Below are positions 31,784 through 33,177 of a stretch of DNA of 64,000 bases, piece after piece. Source of the DNA: Eledone cirrhosa (taxonomy: Eukaryota); contig OZ024761.1 of the NCBI GenBank assembly GCA_964016885.1, forward strand, positions 30,070,001 to 30,134,000. Reading direction: 5' to 3'. The translations under genes were made by a program, and so were the position numbers. The notes below the pieces were generated by a model that worked only from the letters and a program-made list of their open reading frames with translations, searched no databases and was not told where the DNA came from. Position 1 is the stretch's first letter. The number at the start of each line of letters is the position of its first letter.

Positions 31784-31854
<71 letters not shown>

Positions 31855-31979
31855 GTGAATATAGACATAGAATATTCGAAAATATTCTGTATGTTTATAA
31901 TAAACATTTTGAAGACCTAATCGCTATAGAATAGAATACGTCACGTATTACAATTAGATTCTCGATAAAAGCAAGGGAA

Positions 31980-32022
31980 GTAATCTACGCGTTTCATTCT
32001 TGTTAGAAATCATCAGGACTAC
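31980..32022 (-). ncRNA. Minimal type I hammerhead ribozyme, 310-bp unit 1
   Basis: Minus: gtagtc CTGATGA t ttct aaca agaa t GAAAC gc GTA gattac. Confidence 0.9.
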
Positions 32023-32289
32023 ATATCCAGTGCTTTTATCGAGAATGACACAGCTAGAGACTTATAGAATACTTAGCTGTGTACAGGAACTGGTTTGAAA
32101 GAGCGGTTGCCGGTCCGGCAGAAATTAGAAATTGGAATAAATGCTCTGAAATAGCGATATATATGTGAATATAGACATAGAATATTCGAAAATATTCTGT
32201 ATGTTTATAATAAACATTTTGAAGACCTAATCGCTATAGAATAGAATACGTCACGTATTACAATTAGATTCTCGATAAAAGCAAGGGAA

Positions 32290-32332
32290 GTAATCTACGC
32301 GTTTCATTCTTGTTAGAAATCATCAGGACTAC
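32290..32332 (-). ncRNA. Minimal type I hammerhead ribozyme, 310-bp unit 2
   Basis: Identical to unit 1 copy. Confidence 0.9.
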
Positions 32333-32926
32333 ATATCCAGTGCTTTTATCGAGAATGACACAGCTAGAGACTTATAGAATACTTAGCTGTGTACAGGAAC
32401 TGGTTTGAAAGAGCGGTTGCCGGTCCGGCAGAAATTAGAAATTGGAATAAATGCTCTGAAATAGCGATATATATGTGAATATAGACATAGAATATTCGAA
32501 AATATTCTGTATGTTTATAATAAACATTTTGAAGACCTAATCGCTATAGAATAGAATACGTCACGTATTACAATTAGATTCTCGATAAAAGCAAGGGAAG
32601 TAATCTACGCGTTTCATTCTTGTTAGAAATCATCAACAAGAATGAAACGCGTAGATTACTTCCCTTGCTTTTATCGAGAATCTAATTGTAATACGTGACG
32701 TATTCTATTCTATAGCGATTAGGTCTTCAAAATGTTTATTATAAACATACAGAATATTTTCGAATATTCTATGTCTATATTCACATATATATCGCTATTT
32801 CAGAGCATTTATTCCAATTTCTAATTTCTGCCGGACCGGCAACCGCTCTTTCAAACCAGTTCCTGTACACAGCTAAGTATTCTATAAGTCTCTAGCTGTG
32901 TCATTCTCGATAAAAGCACTGGATAT

Positions 32927-32969
32927 GTAGTCCTGATGATTTCTAACAAGAATGAAACGCGTAGATTAC
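32927..32969 (+). ncRNA. Minimal type I hammerhead ribozyme in the inverted arm
   Basis: gtagtc CTGATGA tttctaacaagaat GAAACGCGTA gattac; stem I extended by the 16-bp pair 32903-32918/32976-32991. Confidence 0.9.
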
Positions 32970-33177
32970 TTCCCTTGCTTTTATCGAGAATCTAATTGTA
33001 ATACGTGACGTATTCTATTCTATAGCGATTAGGTCTTCAAAATGTTTATTATAAACATACAGAATATTTTCGAATATTCTATGTCTATATTCACATATAT
33101 ATCGCTATTTCAGAGCATTTATTCCAATATATATATATGTATATATGTGTATATATATGTATATATATATATGTATG

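Follow-up and report, generated by a model that had tools for sequence, protein, structure and literature searches.

The window analysed here, a stretch of 64,000 nucleotides from Eledone cirrhosa (assembly GCA_964016885.1, contig OZ024761.1, positions 30,070,001 to 30,134,000), contains two arrays of a 310-bp unit that meet head to head between (TA)n-rich flanks (Table 1), forming a perfect palindrome of 494 bp centred on 32624/32635. Unit positions are counted from the first base 3' of the predicted GUA cleavage site. The first-pass annotation had recorded a tandem array of identical 310-bp units and this periodicity is confirmed, with 100% identity among units within the locus, but the array does not run in a single orientation, since 2.55 units are followed by 1.59 inverted units; this fold-back layout, absent from the earlier description, is the most informative feature of the locus. 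Likewise, the four hairpins that it listed are present, although they were written on the strand opposite the ribozyme. In total the locus carries three complete hammerheads (two on the minus strand, one on the plus strand) and two partial ones at the turn, while the longest ATG frame in the 310-nt monomer has 30 codons, so that the reverse transcriptase (RT) plus GIY-YIG reading frame of an autonomous Penelope-like element (PLE) is lacking. The (TA)n flanks would mask any target-site duplication, and the AU-alternating short start site could pair with a nicked (TA)n target, which suggests from its sequence a role in priming.

Table 1. Features of the head-to-head retrozyme locus (positions within the window).
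Feature	Position	Strand	Remarks
(TA)n-rich left flank, target site	31691..31846	.	resembles the TA-rich outer flanks at other paired loci
Left arm, 2.55 units, 789 bp	31847..32635	- (ribozyme-sense)	outer 3' end is the short end, unit 139; inner 5' end at unit 281
Short start site, AU-alternating, ~unit 130-139	31847..31856	-	1,245 ends of this kind in the genome
Complete type I hammerhead 1	31980..32022	-	predicted cut 31986/31985
Complete type I hammerhead 2	32290..32332	-	predicted cut 32296/32295
Head-to-head junction of two 5'-truncated arms	32624..32636	.	unit 281 to unit 292, 1-nt overlap
Right arm, 1.59 units, 493 bp	32636..33128	+ (ribozyme-sense)	long end at its outer 3' side, unit 165
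Full monomer between two predicted cleavage sites	32654..32963	+	predicted 310-nt RNA, 34% GC
Complete hammerhead 3 with 16-bp distal stem I extension	32903..32991	+	ribozyme 32927-32969, predicted cut after 32963
26-nt tail, at the right arm's outer end only	33103..33128	+	5' part of the tail kept in sister families
(TA)n-rich right flank	33129..33305	.	seen in the sequence

Several other features occur in the same window. A second hammerhead family, with a 211-bp unit and a palindromic stem III, is found at 58410-58830, 28652 and 41734-42131, and its copy at 58.4-58.8 kb lies head to head in (TA)n with an apparent one-sided tail, as judged by eye. Other hammerhead-like motifs are present at 25719 and at 33860-33910 (the latter degenerate, by eye), and two long hairpins with (TA)n at their flanks or centre lie at 34241-34345 and 36517-36600. 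Protein-coding sequence on the plus strand includes exons of an RGG-rich RNA-binding protein (8160-9140) and a single-frame 498-aa MFS transporter of an SLC46-like cluster (48141-49637). The protein cluster closest to a host gene of the window is most frequent in Mollusca, and the cephalopod host proposed earlier is plausible.

Judged by the type I hammerhead consensus of PMC3088659, each complete ribozyme presents the core C3 U4 G5 A6 N7 G8 A9...G12 A13 A14 A15 with U16 H17 and three helices. Its parts are as first described, namely a 6-bp stem I, a 4-bp stem II after a U.U mismatch, an ACGCGU palindrome and a GUA site, and the distal helix of stem I pairs at 16 of 16 positions; a U10.1-U11.1 mismatch is a natural hammerhead variant that has already been described. 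The term 'minimal' was loosely applied, because the 6-bp helix I and weak palindromic helix III place the motif nearer the canonical metazoan type I form. The covariance-model check that had been proposed gave 19.2 bits (E 0.74) for Rfam HH9, under the gathering threshold of 52, and no sister locus reached a gathering score in Rfam either. On the other hand, the motif is not a product of chance, as the genome holds 4,177 exact copies of the 43-nt ribozyme and none of its reversed control, and the 111-nt ribozyme region folds with z = -4.7, none of 200 shuffles being as stable. Folding of the monomer as a circle (z -4.1) says little on its own, because the antisense strand folds lower still. 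Among 16 hammerheads drawn from the focal family and its sisters, both partners have changed in 19 of 27 pairs, an outcome reached in none of 500 shuffles, although this control overstates the case because the 16 sequences are related and also supplied the structure. The core pair 3-8 is U3-A8 in 13 of these 16 members and C3-G8 in three, variation of a kind described for active hammerheads. As far as the aligned sequences tell, the ribozyme fold is kept by covariation in the sister families and the ribozyme is under constraint.

Within the focal family, variants in the 43-nt ribozyme that harm its core or stems, a class that we assigned ourselves, account for none of the ten insertion-wide changes and for seven of the nine single-copy changes (Fisher p 7e-4), and the variants that are inherited affect N7, loop II or wobble positions, or convert U.U to A-U. 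A genome-wide scan for core mutants adds no support for constraint, because core and control sites behave alike (18 copies mutated at G5, 25 at G12 and 9 at a control G outside the ribozyme, with no multi-locus lineage at any of them). The insertion at C4:19.69 Mb was considered as wholly core-dead and rejected, the change being confined to its four central ribozymes. At L089, L096, L097 and L225 the haplotype couples a 1-base insertion in stem I with an A10.1-U11.1 pair, and both of these changes could stabilise the ribozyme. With regard to cleavage, the double hammerhead is the minimum-energy fold of two strands (-69.3 versus 2 x -31.6 kcal/mol), and in a linear 2.2-mer its energy exceeds the minimum by 6.4 kcal/mol but is 7 kcal/mol lower than that of two single hammerheads; from such folding, cleavage of dimers after GUA is predicted.

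Genome-wide counting shows that the unit is not confined to a single locus, and the earlier view of a young multi-copy retrozyme-type element is borne out by copy number and low divergence. When tolerated positions are loosened, the 43-nt pattern matches the genome 18,331 times, corresponding to about 0.2% of the assembly. The focal family comprises at least 1,246 insertions, and extrapolation from units per locus suggests a total of 2,000-3,000. In 60 loci selected by their ends, 63 single-copy substitutions were found in 136,750 bases (0.05%), and the family is therefore very young. Its genomic features are those of a non-LTR retrozyme, with dispersed arrays of short tandem units that are low in GC, lack an open reading frame and contain a single type I hammerhead apiece. 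Sister families with units of 316-321 bp share the tail motif, which has 4,698 matches beyond the context of the focal family; they show the head-to-head layout in 46 of 65 loci, and have arms mostly 85-99% identical to the family references. These sister retrozymes (L125-L162 and L177-L216) match part of the focal unit at about 75%, have shorter arms and mostly possess a U3-A8 core, a GUC site and a stem III of 3-4 bp. A ribozyme-less 163-bp deletion array of a sister family exists at one locus only genome-wide (L160:3883-4510), where four such units with alternating variants finish with a long end in TA.

The way in which these insertions end is highly regular. Strict end patterns were matched by 1,246 long and 1,245 short ends genome-wide, and although these patterns required TA, loci selected by their ribozyme instead also end in TA. 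The short and long outer ends are two fixed sites 26-31 nt apart. The 193 ends listed for the first 218 Mb of C1 include 64 outward-facing pairs, every one of which combines one long with one short end (58 two-end clusters and six pairs in four complex clusters), with no long-long and no short-short pair, while 63 further clusters among these ends have a single matching end. Two head-to-head arms were found in all 40 fetched pairs and in 13 of 20 fetched single-end loci, the remaining seven being one-armed. The first 100 ribozyme matches belong to 12 insertions, ten of them two-armed and one single, with the twelfth interrupted by an assembly gap. The lengths of the two arms are uncorrelated (Spearman 0.14, p 0.39), the long-end arm being the longer in 23 of 40, and the longest arm reaches 27 units. 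Inversion junctions could be resolved in 55 of 62 cases tried; 38 of them lack filler and overlap by a mean of 2.4 nt versus 0.76 expected, while the other 17 carry filler or mismatch of 3-272 nt. The inner 5' ends do not pile up at the cleavage site (2 of 110 fall in unit positions 1-5), and an excess at positions 1-25 (17 versus 8.9 expected) was noticed post hoc, with an overall chi-square p of 0.16.

One junction, L036:4099-4370, contains a 272-bp insert that matches, at 96-98%, the 5' region of a non-LTR retrotransposon whose copies cluster between 19 and 24 Mb on C25. This insert is possibly a template switch or a repair patch; it was also considered as a trace of a partner PLE, an idea rejected because it derives from another retrotransposon.

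It has been reported that PLE insertions carry an inverted 5'-truncated copy at the 5' end and a tail of 30-40 bp at one end and occupy a (TA)n target, as described by Craig et al. 2021 (PMC8557442) and by Schostak et al. 2008 (PMC2377424). Similarly, the work of Frangieh et al. 2024 (PMC11167929) on the anole Poseidon PLE in vitro describes two adjacent internal start sites that set the extent of the tail, both strands of the target being cut and extended. The focal family presents the insertion footprint of a non-autonomous PLE, i.e. an inverted 5'-truncated copy, a one-end tail arising from two start sites and a microsatellite target, its tail of 26-31 nt being slightly below the reported range. 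Because of this close match to the published footprint and two-start-site chemistry, the products of integration indicate that PLE machinery very probably makes these insertions. The inverted arm, one-sided tail and (TA)n target thus back the mobilisation by a Penelope-type RT that the first-pass annotation had envisaged, even though a partner PLE was not found in the loci searched.

In this regard, the window itself contains a broken PLE at approximately 20695-22709 on the minus strand, which we take to be Neptune-like from its motifs, and an inverted copy of its 3' end at 22593-22826 represents a head-to-head footprint in an element of autonomous type. Its frames gave no match in Pfam, and its family is very large (44,775 first-look candidates, with open frames up to 719 aa). 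No likeness to the 310-bp unit was detected in this element and 19 relatives (20 loci of one PLE family), no autonomous PLE with 3' homology to the unit was found beside the tail-motif loci inspected (65 and 8 loci), 40 more tail-motif loci lack an attached open reading frame, and no PLE 3' region in the fetched loci resembles the unit as judged by eye. A 2.45-kb spacing of the tail motif was rejected as a sign of a partner, since it reflects segmental duplication.

Sequence variants among insertions bear on the nature of the template. The 60 loci chosen by their ends yield 27 substitutions that every unit of the insertion concerned carries, and 15 of these are private to a single locus. When 12 more loci were added (72 in total), 30 haplotypes were distinguished, of which 23 were seen once, variants of intermediate frequency being absent from 66 of the 72 loci. 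The two arms agree in haplotype at 41 of 42 informative loci, compared to an expectation of about 0.13 for two random loci, and no indel was found at the cleavage junction in 643 crossings. Judged from sequence, such single-haplotype insertions are what repeated copying of one covalently continuous monomer would be expected to give, and if a PLE does the copying, a monomer circle is probably the usual template. Heterogeneous insertions do exist. In both arms of L231, two units of one haplotype are followed in register by a second haplotype, and at L074 a variant confined to one unit recurs at the matching index of each arm; a multi-unit template or a joint template switch is therefore needed at these two loci, and their in-register patterns support one RNA behind both cDNAs. 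The rolling-circle copying of a monomer that had been proposed is consequently favoured by the single-haplotype insertions but does not account for the in-register heterogeneous templates at two loci. At L050 the arms are discordant, and L217-L219 show local duplications and 5-7-unit periodicities in long arrays, which therefore rearrange locally, so that some local homogenisation exists. Sequencing runs X1, X3 and X6 each yielded one 340-letter self-closing contig at a depth of 10-15; these were rejected as evidence for circles because tandem DNA collapses alike and the kind of run is not recorded.

The same PLE enzyme and two-primer insertion could also operate on a long uncleaved linear multimer transcribed from source arrays, with haplotypes homogenised by unequal exchange and the ribozyme serving another step. 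The in-register heterogeneity at L231 and L074 and the local duplications in L217-L219 would fit such a template, as would the similar behaviour of control and core sites in the genome-wide scan, and unprocessed RNA was the main in vitro substrate of the anole PLE (PMC11167929). Nevertheless, it would require about 100 separately homogenised long masters (Chao1 118) in a family with only 0.05% single-copy divergence, arms of up to 27 units would be shortened by 5' truncation in each round, and 48 single-copy variants are missing from the other arm at a covered index, versus two loci with in-register sharing. We therefore regard a linear multimer as rather unlikely. It is much less probable still that the palindrome arose from a single cDNA that folded back and copied itself, or from amplification at the DNA level (extrachromosomal circle, MITE-like or Helitron-like): the window's own arms, a perfect palindrome, are what folding back would yield, and short copies made in this way could explain the inner units of L050 and L220, but the second arm is often the longer one, ends 26-31 nt past the first and begins at a unit position unconnected with it, variants found in a single copy have no mirror image in the other arm, and a DNA route leaves the conserved ribozyme unexplained. 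Finally, an artefact of assembly or library (fold-back chimeras, collapsed repeats) is hardly credible, because even though no inversion junction was seen in independent short-read contigs among the joints listed for one deep run (23 loose ends lie outside these), the left and right flanks differ, the ends are fixed and always one of each kind, the older and more diverged sister families share the layout, and run X2, which may be this genome's own sample, has TA loose ends at unit 139 (nine contigs) and unit 170 (one contig).

What the genome preserves are the DNA products of priming, copying and joining, together with a conserved ribozyme fold. On this basis we lean towards a young retrozyme of the non-LTR class, acting as a non-autonomous PLE and copied by a PLE RT from an RNA that would usually be a monomer circle. 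In the proposed cycle, each arm would be transcribed outward as a multimer, in which hammerheads may cut pairwise via the ACGCGU palindrome to release 310-nt monomers that would then be ligated into circles. One such RNA would be bound by a PLE RT-endonuclease, probably as a dimer, and both strands of a (TA)n target would be nicked; a first cDNA could be primed at unit ~130-139 by AU microhomology and a second at unit ~165-170, both proceeding around the template and ending after anything from under one unit to 27. Joining of the two cDNAs via short microhomology or filler would leave a head-to-head insertion with a one-sided tail. Two published observations count against this cycle, namely that for the anole PLE (PMC11167929) cleavage is dispensable in vitro and the start site has no homology to the target, and that eight of nine Xenopus retrozyme dimers did not cleave (2026 preprint). 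Pushed further, and here we are tentative, each insertion could be the frozen product of a dimeric PLE enzyme which copies one ribozyme-made RNA circle twice simultaneously, from two start sites onto the two sides of a target break, in which case the family might evolve as a genomic quasispecies of viroid type, with a one-molecule bottleneck per jump and selection on the ribozyme. If true, the frozen-product reading would account for the inverted-plus-tail structure of PLEs in general, and would support the circle-template model of animal retrozymes with genomic evidence for the first time.

The cited papers leave open both how PLEs build tandem or inverted insertions tailed on one side only and what drives the mobility of animal retrozymes. 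The focal family offers thousands of near-identical integration products in which haplotypes serve as barcodes of the template molecule, so that genome data alone could test whether both arms derive from one RNA and whether this is a monomer circle or a multimer. Furthermore, the 310-nt unit with two mapped start sites is a candidate substrate for a PLE assay, and double-stranded RNA could arise from the long perfect palindromes of the family, which make up about 0.2% of the genome. In the main texts of the retrozyme literature consulted, the circle-plus-PLE idea is present as a hypothesis and pLTR homology is reported in frogs, but no retrozyme is described there with short and long ends in pairs, with inverted arms or with insertions of a single haplotype, and none from a cephalopod; the supplements of the 2020 paper and of the 2026 preprint may still bear on novelty. 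The element is a real feature of a known class with a new mechanistic variant, retrozymes and the PLE footprint each being already known.

Among known systems, the metazoan non-LTR retrozymes of coral, mussel and axolotl (Cervera and de la Pena 2020, PMC7229834) are alike in having low-GC tandem units of ~300 bp with one type I hammerhead each, no open reading frame and thousands of dispersed copies; axolotl HHR_Amex2 also shares the U.U at the base of helix II with the focal ribozyme, and a circle template and a PLE partner have been proposed there. Circles have been demonstrated for those retrozymes, whereas the focal family is known from genomic DNA alone; conversely, the word 'inverted' does not occur in the text of that paper, while the focal family has head-to-head arms with fixed short and long ends. 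According to a 2020 review (PMC7761336), retrozyme repeats carry no motif that points to a partner. Work on vertebrate retrozymes likewise concluded PLE dependence, from co-occurrence and pLTR homology, but proposes local expansion, and 'tail' and 'head-to-head' are absent from its text; for the focal arrays we favour formation in one step at insertion rather than local expansion. Opposite-strand dual hammerheads have been described in schistosome PLE remnants (PMC4209133), and the focal hammerhead differs from the helix-III-less min-HHR of that paper by its weak palindromic helix III. MRC1, a non-autonomous PLE of Chlamys, resembles the focal family in its multicopy head-to-tail insertions but is algal and has a 3' end homologous to a known partner (PMC8557442). 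PLEs in general (PMC8557442, PMC2377424) share with the focal family the inverted 5'-truncated copy, the one-end tail, the (TA)n target and a type I hammerhead; the focal family in turn has no open reading frame, arms of many whole units instead of partial tandems and a shorter tail. Finally, the anole Poseidon PLE (PMC11167929) is alike in its two adjacent start sites downstream of the hammerhead, in the cutting and extension of both target strands and in a predicted dimer, while the focal family is distinguished by a short site that matches (TA)n and by a conserved ribozyme.
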